Source: Spirochaetia bacterium
GTDB taxonomy: Bacteria; Spirochaetota; Spirochaetia; SZUA-6; Bin103
Direction: 5' to 3'
Assembly: GCA_965208575.1 (NCBI GenBank)
Contig: CBDBOV010000005.1
Location: 608,001-672,000, forward strand
DNA length: 64,000 nt
Below the pieces are notes generated by a model that was not told the DNA's origin, did no database searches, and saw only the letters and a list, made by a program, of their open reading frames with translations. Each line of letters begins with the position of its first letter. Position 1 is the first letter of the stretch. The position numbers and the translations under genes were made by a program. Positions 30,996-40,422 of the stretch are shown here, one piece after another.

Positions 30996-32582
30996 CTAAT
31001 CTCCATCGGTGTCAGCGAAATCGACCGGGATGTTCCTCGAACAGTTGTTTGCCGTGTTCGATTCCCCGGTCACCGCGTCCACGCACAAGACGTAGTAGTA
31101 CCGTCCGGCGGTCGCAGGTGTCTGAAACTCCACAGCCTGGAAGGAGGACGCAGCCGAATCCTGCGTCACGACCAGCGCCGGCACGGCGACCGCACCCACC
31201 CGCGTACCGGCGGACGGTGCGCTCGTCGAATCCGGCAACAGGATGAGGCGCAGCGTGGTGGCCTTGGACGGGCTCCCGCTGTTCCACACATCCGTACCGA
31301 ACGACAATGTCGCTCCGGTAGGTTGCACATTCGGCACGGTCAACTGGCTGACGAAGAGGTCCGGTATGTGCTGCGACACTTCGACCTTCAACGCCGCCGA
31401 GCAGTTGTTCGTCGTTACCGACTCTCCCGCCACGGGGTCCACGCAGGCGCCGAAGTACAATACCGCCTTGCTCGACGGCGCCGTCACCCACCCGCGCACG
31501 GTAACCGAGCGCAAGCTCGACAACGGCCACAACCAGACGCGGTCCAACTTCGTGTCCGACCGCGTCACGGTCGCATCCGTTGAACGGTAAAAGCGCAGCG
31601 CCGTCGGCCCCGCCGTCGCACTGCCGAGATTGACCACTTCGGTCTCGAACTCGAGTCGGCCCCCGATGACCGGCTTGCCGGCGCTCACCCGAAGCGGGTT
31701 GACTATCAGATCCGGCCGTGGCCCCGACACCGGAACCTGCGCCGCCTGCACCGCGACCTGCACCGGAGCCGAGCAGTTGTTCGCCGTGTCGGACTCCTCC
31801 GCCACCGCGTCCACGCACGCGCCGTAGTAGTACGTCCCGGAACTCGACGGAGCGCTCAGCTCCACCGACGCAGGGCTGCTCGTCGAGGCCGCCAGCGCCG
31901 GCACCGCGGCGGCGCCCACCTGCTCGTCGGAGGACGTGATCGCCGCATCGTCCGAACGGTAGACGCTCAGCGTCGTCGCCGCCGCGTCTCCGTCCCCGGC
32001 GTTGCGTACCGTGACCGAGAACGAGAAGCTCGCCCCGGCGGCCGGGCTGGCGTCGCTCACGGCGGGTAATTCCACCACCAAGTCCGGCTGCGGCGACGCC
32101 GGCTCCAGATTCTGCGCCTGCACGTCGACTCGGACCGCTGCCGAACAGTTGTTCGCGGTGTCGGATTCTCCCGCCACCGGATCGGCGCATGCGCCGTAGT
32201 AGGAGGTTCCGGGACTCGACGGCGCCGCCACCTCCACCGACGAGGCGCCGCTCGCCGAAGCCGCCAACGCCGGCACCTTGGCGGTGCCCACCTGCTCGCC
32301 GGCGGGCGTGATCGTCTTATCATCCGAACGGTAGACGCGCAGCGTCGTCGTCGCCGCGTTCCCGCGCCCGGCGTTGCGCACCGTGGCCGAGAACGTGAAG
32401 CTCGTCCCTGTGGCCGGGCGGTGGTCGCTCACCGCCGGAGACTCCACCACCAGGTCCGGATGAGCCGCGCCTGGACCTCCGCCGCAGTTCGCTATTGCAA
32501 TGCATGCCAGCGCGGCGAGCGCGCTGCACGCGACCGGCTGCTTGCGGGAGTAACGCGCAGTCGACCTGGTGTTGCACGGCAT
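30996..32582 (-). CDS. CARDB/Ig-like repeat lipoprotein G8 (4 domains)
   Basis: GGAGGAG RBS, MPCNTRST...IANC lipobox, ends FADTDGD. Confidence 0.85.
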   Translation of the reverse strand: MPCNTRSTARYSRKQPVACSALAALACIAIANCGGGPGAAHPDLVVESPAVSDHRPATGTSFTFSATVRNAGRGNAATTTLRVYRSDDKTITPAGEQVGTAKVPALAASASGASSVEVAAPSSPGTSYYGACADPVAGESDTANNCSAAVRVDVQAQNLEPASPQPDLVVELPAVSDASPAAGASFSFSVTVRNAGDGDAAATTLSVYRSDDAAITSSDEQVGAAAVPALAASTSSPASVELSAPSSSGTYYYGACVDAVAEESDTANNCSAPVQVAVQAAQVPVSGPRPDLIVNPLRVSAGKPVIGGRLEFETEVVNLGSATAGPTALRFYRSTDATVTRSDTKLDRVWLWPLSSLRSVTVRGWVTAPSSKAVLYFGACVDPVAGESVTTNNCSAALKVEVSQHIPDLFVSQLTVPNVQPTGATLSFGTDVWNSGSPSKATTLRLILLPDSTSAPSAGTRVGAVAVPALVVTQDSAASSFQAVEFQTPATAGRYYYVLCVDAVTGESNTANNCSRNIPVDFADTDGD

Positions 32583-32795
32583 TGTCCACTCCTCCGGTTC
32601 GGCGCGACCGTACCGCCGGCGGCCCCGCCGCCGTCGTTCACCAGCGGCGAGGTGCCACCACGTTTCTTCATCGTACAGCGTATCCGATAAACATTCCATG
32701 AACTATCAATCATGAAACAGGCAGGAATCGCATCTTGTGAGGGAGATTCGCGTCTTCTCCCCGGAGTCGTCCCGAGCGACGGGTGGACGAGCCGC

Positions 32796-33362
32796 CTAAT
32801 CTCCGTCGGTGTCGGCGAACTCGACCGGGATGTTCCTCGAACAGTTGTTGGCCGTGTTGGATTCCCCGGTCACCGCGTCCACGCACATGACGTAGTAGTA
32901 CTGTCCGGCGGTCGCAGGTGTCTGAAACTCCACAGCCGGGGAGGAGCACGCCTCCGAATCCTGCGTCACGACCAGCTTCGGCACGGCGGCCGCACCCACC
33001 CGCGTACCGGCGGACGGTGCGCTCGTCGAACCCGGCAACAGGATGAGGCGCAGCGTGGTCGCCTTGGACGGGCTTCCGCTGTTGCACACATCTGTACCGA
33101 ACAACAACGTCGCTCCGGTAGGCTGCACCGTGTTGACTGCCAGCGTGGCGACAAAGAGGTCCGGTATGTGGTGCGACACTTCGACCTTCAACGCCGCCGA
33201 GCAGTTGTTCGTCGTTACCGACTCTCCCGCCACGGTGTCCACGCAGGCGCCGAAGTACAATACCGCTTTTTTCGACGGCGCCGTCAACGACGAGCGCACT
33301 GTTACCAAGGGCAAGCCCAAGCCCAAATTCCGGCCCGGCAACGGCCACAACCAGACGGTGGC
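32796..33362 (-). pseudogene. 3' half of CARDB lipoprotein G9 (split by transposon)
   Basis: ATVWLWP...FADTDGD continues in frame from DTEFA at about 37670; paralog of G8. Confidence 0.9.
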
Positions 33363-33497
33363 TAAGAGCGCTCGGGCTAATTGATGGGACGTTGATCGAG
33401 CAATTCGAGGGACAGGATTGGACAGGAAGGAGCGAGGGGTGGGTGTTTCCCGTGCTTCCCGTTTCCGCGATCGGTAAGGAAGGGAAACGGGGAACAG

Positions 33498-34522
33498 CTA
33501 TTGCACGGCGGACCAGCCATGCGGTGTGCGGGTGATGCGACCGTCAGTTTCGAGAGTGCGCAGTGCGGCGGAGAGCGACTGGTCACGGACGCGCAGAGTC
33601 GCACGCAGGGCGCGATGGGGCATGGGGCCGGCGCTGCGCAGGTGAGCGACGATGCGCTCGGCGAAGGTCGAGGCGGTGGGTGGCGGCGGCGCAGGCGGGT
33701 CATCCGGGTTGTGAGACTCGGATGAACCGGAAGGTCCTGGCAGTCGCGGGAGAGTTCGGTGTGTTCCTGCAGCTCGAGACGAACCAGAGGGGGTTGGCCA
33801 GCGCGGGGGTGATCGGTGGCCAACAGATGGAGCGACAGAGGCGCCGGCGGAGGTGCGGCACGATGCTCGACGGTGAGCCGCAGGCGGTTGGGCCGGCCGG
33901 ACAGATAGAGGTTGGAATCGCCCCAGGCCCAGAAGTCGCCGGAGCCGCGCAGCGCCTGGCCGGGAACGGCGGCGCCGCTCTTGCGGGCATGGTGGACGAG
34001 GAGGACGGCGGCGTTGAAGGTGCGTGCCAACTCACGCAGTGCGGCGAGAATGGCGGCGACTTGACGGGCGTCATTTTCATCGGCGCGCTGGAGGCGTACG
34101 AATGGATCGAGGATCAACAGCTTGGGATGCTGGCCGGCGAGGGTAAGGTGGAGCCGGTGCAGGTCCTGGGGATGGTCGAGGCGGAGCGCGGTGTCGAGGA
34201 TGAGCCTGACATCGAGTGCGGCGAAGTCGGCGCCGCGCGCGTGCGCGATGCCCTGGATGCGACGCTTGACCTGATGCGGGGAGTCTTCAGCGGCGAGGAC
34301 GAGCACCGGCCCGGGACAGGGGACCGGGAAGCGGCCCAGGCACGGACGCCCGGAGGCGACCGCGACTGCCAACTCCAACGCCAAGAATGTCTTGCCACTT
34401 TTCGGGGCTCCCCCGATGAGACCGACCGCCGAAGCGCCCCACAACGGCTCGATGAGCCAGTGCGGCTGGTCTGCGGGGAGGTCCTGAAGGTGAGCGGCGC
34501 GGACCACACGCAGTGCTGCCAT
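33498..34522 (-). CDS. AAA_25/RepA-like ATPase with a C-terminal winged helix in another frame (frameshifted)
   Basis: WLIEPLW, GAPKSGKT, LILDPF, LVHHARK, LRGSGD; wHTH FAERIVAHLRS...LRTLETDGRITRTPHGW* lies in the -1 frame and ends at 33498. Confidence 0.75.
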
Positions 34523-34524
34523 GG

Positions 34525-35364
34525 TCAGCGCGGGCGGCGGGTGGCGCGGGCGGGCGGCGCCGGTGAGAACAGCTCGAAGTAGAGCTTCTCGTCGATTTGG
34601 GGCGACTCGTTCCGGGCTGCGGCGACCAGCAACTCGGCCGCCGTGGTCAACAGCACGCGGTAGTTGCCGAGGGCATGTTCGCACAGGGTGACGATGAGTT
34701 GGTCGGTCATCAGAGCGGAGTTGCCGGCGGCGTTCAGGAGGTGCCTGAGGGCGTCCTGGAGCTGCTCGGCAGAGGCCGGCTGGAGGGCGAGCCTGGTGCG
34801 GACGCGGTTGCCGAGGGGCACCAGGTCCTGGTGGCGCAGCTTGTCCTGCAAGCGCAAGTCACCGGCCAGCACCACACTCAGGAGCTGGCGCGAATCGAAC
34901 CGCGTGCTGCTGAGCAGACGCAGTTCAGCGGCCACGGGAGGAGCGAGTTCCTGCGCCTCGTCGACCAGCAGCAGGGGGCGCAGCAGGGTGGTGTCGAGGT
35001 GCAAGGTCCAGCGCTCACGCAACGCCTTGGCGCCACCCCAGCGATTGTGGGGTCGCAACGGGACGCCGAACAGGTCGCCCAACTCGCGGTAGAAGTCGGC
35101 CACGTTGGCCTGCGGTCGGGAGATGGCGCCGACCACCAGATCCGGCTCGGCGGCGAGCCGCTCACTGAGCAGGCGCAAGGTGACGCTCTTGCCGCTGCCG
35201 GACTCGCCGGTGATCAGCGCGAAGCCACCTTCGCGCACCAGCGCGAACTGGATGCGCCACAGGAAGTTCTCCACCTCGGGTGCGATCCACAGCGCCTCGG
35301 TCGGCAGCTCGGGTGCGAACGGGTTGAACTTCAGCCCGTAGAGAGCGAGCAATTTGCGGTTCAT
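34525..35364 (-). CDS. ExeA/AAA_22 family ATPase (TnsC/MuB-like transposition helper)
   Basis: YGLKFNPF, GESGSGKS, LLVDEAQ; ATGA overlap with the transposase. Confidence 0.88.
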   Translation of the reverse strand: MNRKLLALYGLKFNPFAPELPTEALWIAPEVENFLWRIQFALVREGGFALITGESGSGKSVTLRLLSERLAAEPDLVVGAISRPQANVADFYRELGDLFGVPLRPHNRWGGAKALRERWTLHLDTTLLRPLLLVDEAQELAPPVAAELRLLSSTRFDSRQLLSVVLAGDLRLQDKLRHQDLVPLGNRVRTRLALQPASAEQLQDALRHLLNAAGNSALMTDQLIVTLCEHALGNYRVLLTTAAELLVAAARNESPQIDEKLYFELFSPAPPARATRRPR

Positions 35365-36827
35365 CGGAGATCCTCCTCGGGGTTCTCTGGTTTGGGGATG
35401 TAGGCCGGCGGCAGGCCGGTGGCCGCGTAGTCGGCAAGCAGCTTCTGCAACAGTGGTGCGACTCCTGACGGCGCCGCGGGTGCGGTCGCGGCATCGGTCT
35501 GTCGGCGACGGCGCTGGCCGCCGGCGTTGTCGACCTTGTTGACCGGATGGATGGTCGCCACCTCGGCGCCGGTGCGCTCATCGACCACCGCGGCCTGACT
35601 GAGATCCCAGCGCGCATAGCGCACCGCCACGCGTGCCAGGTGATGCAGCCGGCCCGGCAGCTCGAAGCGCACGCCGTCGAGAGTCAGGGTGCCGTCACTG
35701 CGGCGCTGCGTGCGCCGCACCTTGACCCGAAAGGCGCGCCGCAGCTCCGGCGCCGCCGGGCAGTCGCGCAGCACGTTGTTCGACTCCAGGAACGAAGCCA
35801 GCGGCGTCTGCCCGGTCTCGGAGTGCACGCGTCGGTGGTACTCCAACTCGATCCAGGCCACGGTGGCTTGGTTGAGCCGCTCCAAGGTCAGATCAGGCAC
35901 CCCTTCCAGCATCGCCAACAGACGCGTCTCGATCGGCACCCAGAACACTTCCTGCTTGGCGTTCTGATAGGGCGAATAGGGCAGCGTCAACTCCTGCAGC
36001 ACGCCCAACTGAGCCAACCCTTCTTCGATCTCGGCCGCCGTCTCGGCGCCGCCGTTGTCGGTCATCAGGGCACGCGGCAGGCCGCGCTTGAGGAACGCCT
36101 GCCCGAGCCCGTGGACGAAGCTCTCCGCATCCTCCTGCAGGTACCACTGCGCGTGGCAGCACAGCCGCGACTTGTCGTCCAGGACCGCGAACAACTGCGG
36201 CCTGACCCACTGTCCCTGGCGGGTCAGCACCTCCCGCGAGGCATGATGAAAGTCGGCATGGAACAAGCCGCCGACGTACTCGGCTTCGTAGCTGCGCACC
36301 TCGCGGTGCTCCAGGCGCCAGGCGGCTTTGCGGGCGCCGGCGGTGTGCCGTACCCGGACGCGCTTGCGACGGTACAACCCTTGCGTCTTCATCCACCGCC
36401 GCACCACCGCGTAGGACGGCACCCGCCCCAACTCCTCCTGCTGCGTGGCCAGCACCTTCAAGTTGTCGTGATGCAACTGGTAGCTCCAGCCGGGGTGGTC
36501 CTGGTGCTGCTGGCGGAGCACCACGCGCAGCGCCGCCGACACGCTCGGATGCCCGCCCGCATCGCTGCGTACCTGGTTGCGCAGCGCCGCCACCGGATCC
36601 CGCTCCTGCCGGGCGCGGTAGTACCAGCGTTCGATCGTCGACACTCCCAGCCTGATCGGTCGCTTGCTCAGCGGGTGCTGGTACTCCCGCGCGGCGAGCT
36701 CCCGCAGCGCCTGCTGCAGTTCGCCGCACGCCGGTGGCGCGGCCAACAGCGGCCCGATCACCGAAAACCGGAATCGTGCCCACTGATCGCGGTCCGAGAC
36801 CTCTCGTTGTCTGTCTGATGCTTCCAT
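35361..36827 (-). CDS. DDE transposase (rve core, Mu-transposase-like C-terminus)
   Basis: N-terminal HTH (STIERWYY); FHADFHH, LMTDNGG, NAKQEVFW; RRSDGTLTLDGVRFE. Confidence 0.92.
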   Translation of the reverse strand: MEASDRQREVSDRDQWARFRFSVIGPLLAAPPACGELQQALRELAAREYQHPLSKRPIRLGVSTIERWYYRARQERDPVAALRNQVRSDAGGHPSVSAALRVVLRQQHQDHPGWSYQLHHDNLKVLATQQEELGRVPSYAVVRRWMKTQGLYRRKRVRVRHTAGARKAAWRLEHREVRSYEAEYVGGLFHADFHHASREVLTRQGQWVRPQLFAVLDDKSRLCCHAQWYLQEDAESFVHGLGQAFLKRGLPRALMTDNGGAETAAEIEEGLAQLGVLQELTLPYSPYQNAKQEVFWVPIETRLLAMLEGVPDLTLERLNQATVAWIELEYHRRVHSETGQTPLASFLESNNVLRDCPAAPELRRAFRVKVRRTQRRSDGTLTLDGVRFELPGRLHHLARVAVRYARWDLSQAAVVDERTGAEVATIHPVNKVDNAGGQRRRRQTDAATAPAAPSGVAPLLQKLLADYAATGLPPAYIPKPENPEEDLR

Positions 36828-36934
36828 TTCCCCCGGTTCCTGCTGCTCGCCCCAAATCTGGCCAGCGCAGCGCCCCGGGGATAGATCACAACTCGTGCGG
36901 GAGCTTCAGCGCGGCTTGCATCTTCTGCGGGAAC

Positions 36935-37522
36935 TCACCGGTCCATCACCGAGCCCGCTCCGGCGGTCGCCGGCGCCAGATAGTGCAACGCTGCCACCAG
37001 CCGCTCGGCGGCGTCGGTCTGCTCAAACCGCTCCAGCAGCGAGGCAGGCAGCGACTCCTCATCTACCGGCGACGCAAACCGCCCCCGCCCGGCGCGCCAG
37101 AACGAACTGTTCGGGAACTCCTCCAGCCACCACTGGCGCCAGCGCTTCAGCGTATGCCGGCTCAACGTCGGCGCCTGCAACTGCTCGCGCAACTGTTCTG
37201 TTCGCTTCTGCGTGATCCCGTTGTGCAGGCTGAACGCCAGCACAAACACCGGCCCCAGGTACACCCGCCGGCCCCAGAACCGCAGCGCCGGCGGCGTCAC
37301 CCGCTTGCGGCACCCCGCCGCCGCGCAACAGAAACTCGCCCGCTGCTCATACTTCGCCGGCAATTCCCTCGGCCCGCCGCGCGGCTTGCGTTCATAGCGC
37401 GCCGAGTGCAGCACACCCGCGCAGTGCGGACAGCCCTTGCTCCGCACCCCCCGGGCCACGTCCTCGTCGATTCTCAGCAGCAGACGATGAAAGCTGGTAT
37501 CTCCCAGCAGTCTGTGTAACAC
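36935..37522 (-). CDS. Cys-rich Zn-finger/HTH protein, first gene of the transposon (DUF6431-like)
   Basis: AAGGAG RBS plus GTG; CPHC...CC...CRKR; TLKRWRQWW. Confidence 0.75.
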   Translation of the reverse strand: MLHRLLGDTSFHRLLLRIDEDVARGVRSKGCPHCAGVLHSARYERKPRGGPRELPAKYEQRASFCCAAAGCRKRVTPPALRFWGRRVYLGPVFVLAFSLHNGITQKRTEQLREQLQAPTLSRHTLKRWRQWWLEEFPNSSFWRAGRGRFASPVDEESLPASLLERFEQTDAAERLVAALHYLAPATAGAGSVMDR

Positions 37523-37525
37523 TGA

Positions 37526-37597
37526 TGGTCTCCTTGCCTTTCGATTACAAGGAGACCACCCCCTCACGGGCTTGTTGGTCAAGCTCCGTGAGGGGGT
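37526..37597. promoter_or_regulatory. Two tandem hairpins in the transposon leader; one sequesters the RBS
   Basis: tggtctccttg/caaggagacca (11-bp perfect IR, 37526-37558) and accccctcacgg/ccgtgagggggt (12-bp IR, 37558-37597) followed by tcttttcccttc. Confidence 0.7.
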
Positions 37598-37667
37598 TCT
37601 TTTCCCTTCCCTCAATCAGCTCGACCCAGAATCACGCTTATCCCATCGATATTCGTGGCGCTGCTGA

Positions 37668-38698
37668 GCGAACTCCGTGTCCGACCGCGTCACGGTCGCA
37701 TCCGTTGAACGGTAGAAGCGCAGCGCCGTCGGCCCCGCGGTCGCACTGCCGCGGTTGACCACTTCGGTTTCTAACGTGAATCGGCCCCCGATGGCCGGCT
37801 TGCCGGCGCTCACCCGAAGCCGGTTGACTACCAGGTCCGGCCGTGGCCCCGACACCGGAACCTGCGCCGCCTGCACCGCGACCTGCACCGGAGCCGAGCA
37901 GTTGTTCGCCGTGTCGGACTCCTCCGCCACCGCGTGCACGCACGCGCCGTAGTAGTACGTCCCGGAACTCGACGGAGCGCTCAGCTCCACCGACGCAGGG
38001 CTGCTCGTCGAGGCAGCCAGCGCCGGCACCGCGGCGGCGTCCACCTGCTCGCCGGAAGGTGTGATCGTCTCATCATTCGAACGGTAGACGCGCAGCGTCG
38101 TCGCCGCCGCGTCTCCGTCCCCGGCGTTGCGTACCGTGACCGAGAACGAGAAGCTCGCCGCGGCGGCCGGGCTGGCGTCGCTCACGGCGGGTGATTCCAC
38201 CACCAGGTCCGGCCGCGGCGCCGTATCCTGCACCTGCACGATGACTCGGACCGTTGCCGAACAGTTGTTCGCGGTGTCCGATTCTCCCGCCACCGGCTCG
38301 ACGCACCCGCCGTAGTAGGAGGTTCCGGGACTCGACGGCGCTGTTACCTGCACCGACGCGACGCGGCTTGCCGAAGCCGTCAGCCCCGTCACCGTGGCGT
38401 CGCCCACCTGCTCGTCGGAGGGCGTGATCGCCTCATCGTCCGAACGGTACACGCGCAGCGTGGTCGCCGCCGCGCTCCCGCGCCCGGCGTTGCGCACGGT
38501 GGCCGAGAACGTGAAGCTCGTCCCGGCGGTCGTGCGGTGGTCGCTCACCGCGGCATCTTCCACCACCAAGTCGGGATGAGCCGCGCCCGGGCCTCCGCCG
38601 CAGTTCGCCAGTGCAATGCATGCCAGCGCGGCCAGCGCGCTGCACGCGACCGGCTGCTTGCGGGAGTAACGCGCAGTCGACCTGGTGTTGCACGGCAT
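37668..38698 (-). pseudogene. 5' half of CARDB lipoprotein G9
   Basis: MPCNTRST...LANC leader nearly identical to G8; breaks after RSDTEFA. Confidence 0.9.
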
Positions 38699-38984
38699 TG
38701 TCCACTCCTCCGGTTCGGCGCGACCGTACCGCCGGCGGCCCCGCCGCCGGCGGTCGCCAGCGGCGAGGTGCCACCACGTTTCTTCATCGTACAGCGTATC
38801 CGATAAACTTTCCATGAACTATCAATCATGAAACAGGCAGAAATCGCATCTTGTGAGGGAGATTCGCGTCTTCTCCCCGGAGTCGTCCCGAGCGACGGGT
38901 GGACGAGCCGGGCAGGACGCGAGAGGTGAGAGGTGAGCGGATCTGTCCCGCCGCAACCAGGGGCCCGCTGTCAGCGCAGGCTCC

Positions 38985-39525: not shown

Positions 39526-40422
39526 TTAACGGTGGGGAGGAGGATTGAGAGGAGCGCAGAGTCGGCGGCGGAAGTCGCGCCTGAGCGGGTAGAGCCAGAT
39601 GTCCTTCCTGGGCAGCGAGTAGGTCTTGTGCACATCGAGTTTGCCGCGCCCTTGGGTCTGTCCGACGTGGGTCCAGTTGGCGGCGCGGTAGCTGGTACCG
39701 GCGAAGCGGTCGGTCTGCACGAAGGTCTCCAGGAGCAGCGGTCGGTAGCCATAGCGAGCCTGCCAGTCATCGGGCAGCCGGCGGCTGATGCGCGCCAGCA
39801 CGGTGGAAGCGAGATTGCGCACCTGCACCCAGGGCAGGATCAAGAAGCGGGCGTTGTTCACGACCAACTGCAGCCGGGCTTCGCGTTGGGCAACGCTCCA
39901 GCCGATGAAGCGGTCACGGGGAGCCGCCTTCCAGGCGCTGGCGCCAAAGCCGACCACCGCCAGCACCTGCCGCTGGCTGGTGACCAGGTAACGCATCTGT
40001 GCTCCCGGCAGCGGGGTATAGCCGAGGTAGTGGTAACGGTCCACGTACTCGCGCCACAACTGCGCTTCGCGCTGATCGGCCAGCGGTCGTACGTGCAGCG
40101 CCGGCAGCGCATCGACGCGGGCGATGATCGGCAACTCCGGTTCCGCCTGCGGGGTACGGTGGCGGTGCAGGGTGCCGTTGTAGTGGCGCCGGCGCGGCGC
40201 CGGCAGTTGGATGAGCCCGTCGCGGTGCATGCGCAGCATGGCGACCCGACAGCTCATGTCCTTCAGTTGACCGTTGGCACGCCGCCAGGGGAGCCGTTCG
40301 CACACCACCTTCGAGAGGGCGAACCGATGGCGGCTGGGGTCCTCGGCGATGATGGCGCGGATCAGCTGCATCTCGTTTTCGCTGAACAGCCGTCCGCAGT
40401 AGCGCAGCGCCTCAGGCGGCAC
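39526..40422 (-). CDS. DUF4338 (DruA-like domain) protein
   Basis: RYCGR, DRYHYLGY, RDRFIGW, NNARFLILPWV, LLETFV, GTSYRAANW. Confidence 0.85.
   Translation of the reverse strand: MPPEALRYCGRLFSENEMQLIRAIIAEDPSRHRFALSKVVCERLPWRRANGQLKDMSCRVAMLRMHRDGLIQLPAPRRRHYNGTLHRHRTPQAEPELPIIARVDALPALHVRPLADQREAQLWREYVDRYHYLGYTPLPGAQMRYLVTSQRQVLAVVGFGASAWKAAPRDRFIGWSVAQREARLQLVVNNARFLILPWVQVRNLASTVLARISRRLPDDWQARYGYRPLLLETFVQTDRFAGTSYRAANWTHVGQTQGRGKLDVHKTYSLPRKDIWLYPLRRDFRRRLCAPLNPPPHR

Follow-up and report, generated by a model that had tools for sequence, protein, structure and literature searches.

Phage Mu has TG..CA tips and makes a fixed 5-bp duplication, and IS21 carries several repeated binding sites at each end, has no resolvase and leaves variable short duplications; elements of the IS481 family are thought to move alone. 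So far, little more has been known of Tn6049 than its name and its abundance in one metal-resistant bacterium. The available portion of PMC2864759 describes it as a 3.5-kb element with 12 copies in Cupriavidus metallidurans CH34, each with a 'gspA' ATPase gene, and as inserting inside genes, for example pbrU; that of PMC4739549 gives 12-bp inverted repeats starting TGTGC and a 4-bp direct repeat. The Tn6049 literature covered by our search, to which the primary description (Van Houdt 2009) did not belong, describes neither a variant with a helicase nor a mechanism. Here we analyze a stretch of 64,000 nucleotides from a Spirochaetia bacterium (assembly GCA_965208575.1, contig CBDBOV010000005.1, positions 608,001 to 672,000 of the forward strand), the whole of which we call the window, and a four-gene transposon within it. 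With a probability of roughly 80%, this region is a transposon of the Tn6049 family inserted in a CARDB-repeat gene with a 2-bp GC duplication. For the window itself this is an ordinary matter, with one of several CARDB paralogues disrupted by one insertion.

Several paralogous CARDB-repeat genes follow one another on the minus strand of the window; one of them is intact (30996-32699, minus strand, 567 aa, CARDB E 4.5e-37). A second is split by the element into a 3' part (32796..33362, minus strand), whose last two bases are the left copy of GC and whose frame resumes at 37670, and a 5' part (37668..38815, minus strand), which includes the right copy. When both parts are aligned to the intact paralogue, the break maps between paralogue positions 31539 and 31546, and the parts rejoin in frame and at the length of the paralogue only if GC is counted once. 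The two copies, at 33361-33362 and 37668-37669, thus flank the element as a 2-bp target duplication. The transposon proper, delimited by its tips and by homology, is 33363..37667 (minus strand, 4305 bp), with four co-oriented genes, all on the minus strand; its tips read TAAG from the 33363 side and TCAG inward from the 37667 side. An earlier reading of this DNA from its letters alone, which we call the original prediction, had placed the element at 33361..37669. It called its boundaries exact; the range takes in both GC copies, as the position ruler sets the start of TAAG at 33363; the tips and the GC-only duplication that it read in this copy are borne out by the rebuilt CARDB gene. A 5-bp duplication can also be drawn near the junctions in two ways, each of which breaks the CARDB frame and puts the tips out of register with those of relatives, and we rejected both.

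Each end carries two boxes. At the helicase-side end (33363..33412, plus strand), the TAAG tip is followed at 33380-33389 by an outer box, ATTGATGGGA, whose GATGG begins 20 nt from the tip, and at 33396-33412 by an inner box. The opposite end (37608..37667, minus strand), next to the gene for a four-cysteine (Cys4) protein, has the tip TCAG, an outer box at 37641-37650 and an inner box at 37608-37624. Within the 64 kb, the outer motif ATYGATGGGA occurs twice (33380 and 37641; 0.16 expected), as does the inner motif TCGAGCNNNTYGAGGGA (33396 and 37608; 0.01 expected), in each case once inside each end. The repeated end motifs, which had been predicted, therefore exceed chance.

The rebuilt CARDB gene, a solo end, copies in a genome of the same genus and a metagenome unitig all agree on these ends, which had been claimed as exactly defined. 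Besides the one full copy, the window's own genome contains a 67%-identical copy and a solo helicase-side end. The solo end (L003, contig C2, 587416-587667) is 93% identical to the window copy over about 250 nt; its similarity begins exactly at 33363, its flank is unrelated to the window flank, and after about 250 nt it is cut off by an adjoining group II intron-type reverse transcriptase gene (RVT_1, E 8e-32). Three full copies in the same-genus genome (L007-L009), whose DNA is 94% identical to that of the window copy, and a truncated copy in a further genome (L125) all start exactly at the TCAG tip and all have different flanks. Among public metagenome contigs (Logan), one unitig starts exactly at 33363. 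The second four-gene copy in the genome, copy B (L002, contig C4, about 94770-99040), reaches no more than 67% DNA identity, interrupts a sulfatase gene and has an intact helicase gene of 323 aa. The element is present in 3 of 30 relatives of the window's genome (E 1e-50 or better). A transposase match of 54% identity, containing one in-frame TGA, also occurs in a genome of the same family (G017, contig C2, 1641710-1643095; L126).

Contigs of two studies pass directly from 33360 to 37668, leaving out 4307 bases, with two letters ambiguous. Such a bridging contig is an uninterrupted homologue of the right length; because 51 of 757 aligned letters differ in the long one and 12 of its 21 listed variants are the paralogue's letter, it may be another allele or a paralogue and is not certainly a true empty site. 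The joint of 37667 to 33363 expected of a circle is absent from the joints listed in the Logan contigs, which cannot show rare forms and of which 4 joints were not displayed. The stretch 32900-38100, whole or in part, is found in 20 public runs from 10 studies, several of them labelled sponge metagenome, and six RNA runs hold small shares of it (0.06-0.16).

To place the element among described systems, we turned to plasmids, where the window transposase matches that of Tn6049 with 53% identity over 95% of the query (tblastn, E 4e-134). The matches lie on pMOL28 and pMOL30 of C. metallidurans CH34 and on pHS87a of Pseudomonas aeruginosa, and the annotated order on these plasmids is a small 'transposase', an 'IS481 family transposase', an AAA ATPase and then a 90-aa open reading frame (ORF). 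The window element shares with Tn6049 the same trio of genes in the same order, namely a Cys4 protein with a helix-turn-helix (HTH), a DDE transposase and an AAA_22 ATPase described as 'GspA/ExeA-like', at identities of 44% for the Cys4 protein, 53% for the transposase and 60% for the ATPase. It also shares the layout of the ends, in which a GATGG box 20 nt from the tip is followed further in by another box, together with short variable flanking repeats and insertion within genes. The two differ in their tips, which are TGTG..CACA in the three Tn6049 copies that we checked, with the 12-bp inverted repeats published, and TAAG/TCAG in the window element; in size and fourth gene, with 3.5 kb and a 90-aa fourth ORF in Tn6049 against 4.3 kb and a RepA-like helicase here; and in the 2-bp repeat of the window copy. 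Judged by these homologies, the window element is a relative of the named Tn6049 family and not the member of an unnamed one. The original prediction of a poorly characterised family thus holds as to how little is described, and not as to novelty, since the family already bears a name; the element is a new four-gene variant inside the named, uncharacterised Tn6049 family. The predicted gene content also stands, with matches to AAA_25, AAA_22 and rve plus HTH_32 and a protein with four invariant cysteines.

The fourth gene (33498..34522, minus strand) encodes a RepA-like helicase with an AAA_25 domain (E 1.5e-39) and a C-terminal winged helix. Using the intact copy of the same genus as query, we found a match to RSF1010 RepA (E 1.6e-11), and the protein is also related to phage primase-helicase families (PHROG). 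In the window, the frame breaks near 33719, and the listed ORF runs on to 33377 in the wrong frame; this region has 32 bases more than the same-genus copy, which puts the winged helix out of frame. When the break is read through with a placeholder near 33719, the protein ends in the winged helix. Contigs from runs X5 and X7 have one extra G behind 33719 that brings the winged helix back into frame, and in run X1 a 60-nt stretch within 33688-33750 is replaced by 28 other letters. Because the X5 and X7 contigs carry this frame-restoring G, the break in the sequence may be an assembly error or private to the strain.

The same break would be expected if the window copy were a dead relic, a fixed insertion no longer able to move whatever the family does, and the presence of a single full copy in the genome, together with a helicase-side tip of TAAG where nearly all relatives have TGAG or TCAG, points the same way. 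We consider this reading unlikely, if well short of negligible, given that none of the three core genes is shortened, each aligning with its relatives over the whole length, and that both boxes are kept at both ends. Moreover, family members can do without the helicase, the extra G is found in further metagenome contigs of the element, and uninterrupted forms of the target appear in two studies.

To see how the tips of the window element compare with those of its relatives, we compared copies within four multi-copy genomes, copies of Tn6049 and the two copies of the window's genome, and fixed the tips from these comparisons. The resulting 14 tips of seven elements, Tn6049 included, align without gaps and have a common layout. 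Position 1 is an invariant T (equivalent to a 3'-terminal A), position 2 varies, and position 3 is A (T in Tn6049) followed by G, the exception being the Cys4-side tip of copy B, TAAC. A GA(T/G)G box stands at position 21, and a second, inner box is placed differently at the two ends. We then scored tips across copies with a matrix built from these 14, which are themselves among those scored. Among ATPase-side tips scoring at least 20 (n = 57), 48 read TGAG, 4 TCAG, 4 TGTG and 1 TAAG; the Cys4-side tips at this threshold (n = 33) comprise 24 TCAG, 7 TGAG, 1 TAAG and 1 TGAC. The form of the tip across the family, with relatives from many phyla, is T-N-(A/T)-G, and mostly TGAG.

Flanking repeats are similarly variable. 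They measure 2 nt at the window copy and 4 nt at copy B (6 if the tip register is ignored); 4, 3 and 0 nt in the same-genus genome; 3, 3, 2 and 3 nt in a Verrucomicrobial genome, where one copy is truncated; 6, 7 and 6 nt in a Terriglobia genome; 6, 6, 6, 6, 5, 3, 2, 1, 0, 0 and 0 nt at the 11 copies of a Gammaproteobacterial genome; 6, 5 and 4 nt at three copies of Tn6049; and 6, 6, 4, 3 and 2 nt at single loci. Across the family, repeats thus span 2 to 7 bp, with 6 the most frequent. Both tips could be placed in 42 copies, 19 of which have a repeat of at least 2 nt and 15 one of at least 3 nt, compared with about 0.7 expected for the latter. A comparison of insertion sites and repeats across the family gave no common sequence, and the sites lie inside ordinary genes. 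For copy B, we rejected a 6-bp repeat: the flanks share 6 nt, but the tip T and the spacing of 20 nt are both preserved only with a repeat of 4 nt. With repeats of 2-7 nt and a variable second tip base in the family, the ends of the window element therefore do not set it apart; its 2-bp duplication and non-TG tips lie at the edge of the family range and are not distinguishing.

These data bear directly on the proposal that the window element represents a new, unnamed Mu/Tn7-like family, with non-TG..CA tips and a 2-bp duplication as signs of a different end chemistry and a zinc-finger protein as a TniQ-like selector. Beyond the TAAG/TCAG tips and 2-bp duplication of the window copy itself, the proposal can draw on its closest relatives, which have TCAG at both tips and the 4-, 3- and 0-nt repeats, on the 3-, 3-, 2- and 3-nt repeats of the Verrucomicrobial lineage, and on a set of proteins (DDE enzyme, AAA+ ATPase and small zinc protein) that recalls TniA/TniB/TniQ. 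The founder of the family, however, is Tn6049, with its TGTG..CACA tips and 4-6 bp repeats; most high-scoring ATPase-side tips (48 of 57) are TGAG, the first position is constant in all 14 aligned tips, and repeats reach 6-7 nt in two other lineages. Homologous loci thus show conventional TG tips and longer duplications, which speaks against a different end chemistry. The Cys4 protein, for its part, showed no match in our searches to TniQ or to another known family or fold, and insertion sites inside ordinary genes with no sequence in common lend no support to a target selector of the TniQ kind. We therefore regard this proposal as very improbable.

The protein in question is encoded by the first gene of the operon (36935..37522, minus strand; 195 aa, with a GTG start at 37522) and combines a Cys4 zinc ribbon with an HTH. 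Across 45 homologues, Cys31, Cys34, Cys66 and Cys71 are invariant and are followed by a basic motif and then by a weak homeodomain-like HTH. A Pfam search of these 45 members at E up to 1 returned only weak HTH_23 matches (27 of 45) and no TniQ; a weak or missing TniQ match leaves room for kinship. The structural model is of good quality (predicted local distance difference test [pLDDT] 88, predicted template modeling score 0.83). It gave 0 matches at E 1e-3 or better in a Foldseek search against the PDB and a best Z of 2.9 in a wide VIA fold search, and the profile of the protein found nothing below E 0.3 among PDB sequences. A protein atlas places it in unnamed clusters; the one lead is DUF6431, seen on 32% of a single cluster. 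Database clusters listed for it number more than 1000, and the listed rows that are named all read 'hypothetical protein'. The basic surface motifs and the HTH suggest that the protein binds DNA; a role as regulator or as end/target cofactor is a guess.

The DDE transposase (35361..36827, minus strand; rve and HTH_32 domains) has N-terminal DNA-binding domains, an RNase H core, a beta-barrel and a conserved C-terminal tail. Its catalytic residues, D192, D257 and E293, are invariant in 62 transposase sequences. A structural model (pLDDT 83) matches TnsB of ShCAST, a CRISPR-associated transposon (CAST), in Foldseek with E 6e-20, the MuA transpososome with E 2.5e-16 and IstA of IS21 with E 1e-15, as well as Tn7 TnsB, with matches spanning 430-520 columns. 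The sequence profile additionally matches the DNA-binding region of TnsB (1.9e-8), and both the transposase and the ATPase match Mu-type PHROG families ('transposase' at 1.6e-37 and 'DNA transposition protein' at 6.7e-22). The start of the AAA+ ATPase gene (34525..35364, minus strand; AAA_22 E 5.5e-22) overlaps the stop of the transposase gene by 4 nt, and its profile identifies MuB as the best match among solved structures (2.4e-6), followed by TnsC (5.5e-3). The MuA/TnsB/IstA-like fold of the modeled transposase and the MuB/TnsC profile match of the ATPase together support a putative two-component mechanism of the Mu/IS21/Tn7 type, in line with the label 'Mu/Tn7-like' that the element had been given.

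The likeness to each of these systems is partial. As in IS21, a DDE enzyme with N-terminal HTH domains is accompanied by an AAA+ helper, end sites are repeated, no resolvase is present and short duplications vary in length; unlike in IS21, the ATPase is an AAA_22 protein of the MuB kind, with no IstB/DnaC-type match among the Pfam and structure-profile matches listed, the former comprising AAA_22 and other P-loop families, and the Cys4/HTH protein forms a third universal component. The kinship with Mu is visible in the best ATPase match, the PHROG families and the fold of the MuA transpososome, whereas the window element is not a phage, Mu is without a Cys4 protein, and the repeats of 2-7 nt and TNAG tips found here depart from its fixed 5 bp and TG..CA. 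ShCAST TnsB is the best transposase match by fold and profile, TnsC is matched weakly, and the three-component logic with a small zinc protein also resembles that of the Tn7/Tn5053/CAST group; the window element differs in having no TniQ or TniB Pfam match, no specific attachment site and no duplication fixed at 5 bp. Among Pfam and NCBIfam matches we saw no domain of a TnsA endonuclease or of a resolvase of the Tn5053 or Tn552 type, and the four genes fill the element.

That the element is instead an IS481-type insertion sequence whose transposase acts alone, with the Cys4 protein, ATPase and helicase as passenger or host-directed genes, is the least probable of the readings considered, very doubtful even though the NCBIfam IS481 model NF033577 is the best curated match of the transposase (E 1.4e-28), RefSeq labels the Tn6049 enzyme 'IS481 family transposase', and the available part of PMC10045372 reports variable duplications and T-N-T tips, with their variable second base, for IS481-like elements: the match scores 100.3 bits, far under the cut-off of 224, IS481 elements have one gene while the Tn6049-like trio is present wherever the contig allows, in many phyla and with reading frames that overlap or abut, the ATPase is of the MuB/TnsC kind, and the transposase shares its beta-barrel and C-terminal tail with enzymes of the MuA/TnsB type.

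Several points nevertheless weigh against assigning the region to a mobile Tn6049-family element with a short target duplication. The tip matrix applied to the 42 copies was built from 14 tips that also sit in the scored set. No flanking repeat is present at 17 of the 42 copies, and 6 of the 42 have 1 nt only, for which a repeat-free mode of insertion is an alternative; the repeat-free copies are mostly on short metagenome contigs or in many-copy genomes, where flanks can be swapped, and one copy, on a finished plasmid, is flanked by two truncated genes that differ from each other. The match to the IS481 model allows an IS481-like reading of the transposase, and for the Cys4 protein neither Pfam nor sequence and fold searches of the PDB turned up a relative whose function is known. 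With the helicase frame broken in the assembly, and with nothing more of the element in the genome than a single full copy, a 67%-identical one and a solo end, the activity of this copy is only putative. We also found no experiment on any member of the family in the literature searched.

Between the Cys4-side end and the Cys4 gene lies a leader (37527..37597, minus strand) for which two adjacent hairpins are strongly predicted. The loop of hairpin 1 (37558-37597) contains TTGAC, and the 3' arm of hairpin 2 (37527-37557) contains the AAGGAG ribosome-binding site (37530-37535). The hairpin pair recurs in distant family members with different stem sequences; a consensus fold on a MAFFT alignment gave 6 pairs only, and we used single-sequence folds in its place. 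Reading the printed structures by eye, we found the twin-hairpin fold in about 9-10 of 12 representatives. In 10 of the 12, the leader folds with a z of -2.8 to -7.4 and at most one equally good shuffle, and the other two have z -2.5 and -0.8. We predict that the leader is probably a device that keeps incoming outside transcripts from expressing the operon.

From the homologies and the anatomy of the DNA, which are observed, we infer the steps by which a Tn6049-family element might move. The transposase, with its MuA/TnsB/IstA-type fold, would bind the two boxes of each end through its N-terminal DNA-binding domains, pair the ends and expose the 3'-OH of the terminal A. The ATPase, of the MuB/TnsC kind, would coat or bend target DNA and activate strand transfer, probably by way of the transposase's conserved C-terminal tail. 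The stagger between the points of strand transfer would be loose (2-7 bp), with no target consensus. Because neither a TnsA-like nuclease nor a resolvase is present, the most likely mode of movement is a replicative or copy-out one, like that of Mu and IS21. The Cys4/HTH protein would act as a third universal component, whose most likely part is to bind DNA and serve as regulator or as end/target cofactor, and the optional RepA-like helicase may aid replication at the strand-transfer intermediate. The twin-hairpin leader, finally, probably blocks expression of the operon from outside transcripts.

To examine how widely such elements occur, we scanned species-representative genomes, where 198 stretches encode a relative, and kept 80 of them. 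The hosts belong to at least a dozen phyla, among them Acidobacteriota, Verrucomicrobiota, Pseudomonadota, Myxococcota, Planctomycetota, Armatimonadota and Gemmatimonadota. The Cys4 gene is found in 80 of 84 loci, the other four having at most 273 nt upstream of the transposase gene, and the ATPase gene in 83 of 84, the remaining contig ending 6 nt past the transposase match. The helicase gene, by comparison, is present in 39 of the 84. On a quick maximum-likelihood tree of 62 distinct transposases (32 from four-gene and 20 from three-gene elements, with 10 undetermined), the four-gene state requires at least 6 changes, at least 3 of them forced by strongly supported branches, and because of this the helicase is, as far as the tree can tell, an optional module that has been repeatedly gained or lost. 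The transposase tree does not track host phyla, and several genomes have multiple near-identical copies at different sites, a sign of mobility. The length of many family contigs is close to that of the element, which is what collapsed repeats would give. Among loci L010-L086, many are short-read metagenome contigs of 3-5 kb with little beyond the element, which is a frequent cause of assembly breaks.

The kin of Tn6049 are thus seen in at least a dozen phyla, often in many copies, with a compact three-protein machinery related to those of Mu, IS21 and Tn7 that includes a universal protein of unmatched fold, and with a helicase in about half of the loci. We tentatively propose, as a possibility that we ourselves rate as rather doubtful, that Tn6049-like elements form a distinct class of three-component transposons across many phyla. 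Such a class would comprise a transposase of MuA/TnsB/IstA fold, a MuB-like ATPase and, as a new kind of cofactor, a Cys4/HTH protein with no relative of solved fold; it would accept any base after the terminal T and a loose stagger of 2-7 bp, and many members would bring their own RepA-like hexameric helicase to drive replication of the intermediate without the restart machinery of the host. A small DDE plus AAA+ system that is not site specific and has relaxed rules for tips and stagger would be a useful comparison for the well-studied Mu and Tn7/CAST systems. It is also a practical target for annotation, as many short metagenome contigs consist of nothing but the element.

Outside the element, the CARDB-repeat paralogues stand in tandem at 30996-33362 and 37668-38815. 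Metagenome contigs contain 'go-back' joints from 37731 and from 37965 to 33171, within the CARDB repeats and outside the element, which suggests variable repeat numbers or recombination among the CARDB paralogues. A DruA-like gene (39526-40422, minus strand; Druantia DruA, E 1.4e-49) lies 1.9 kb from the element.

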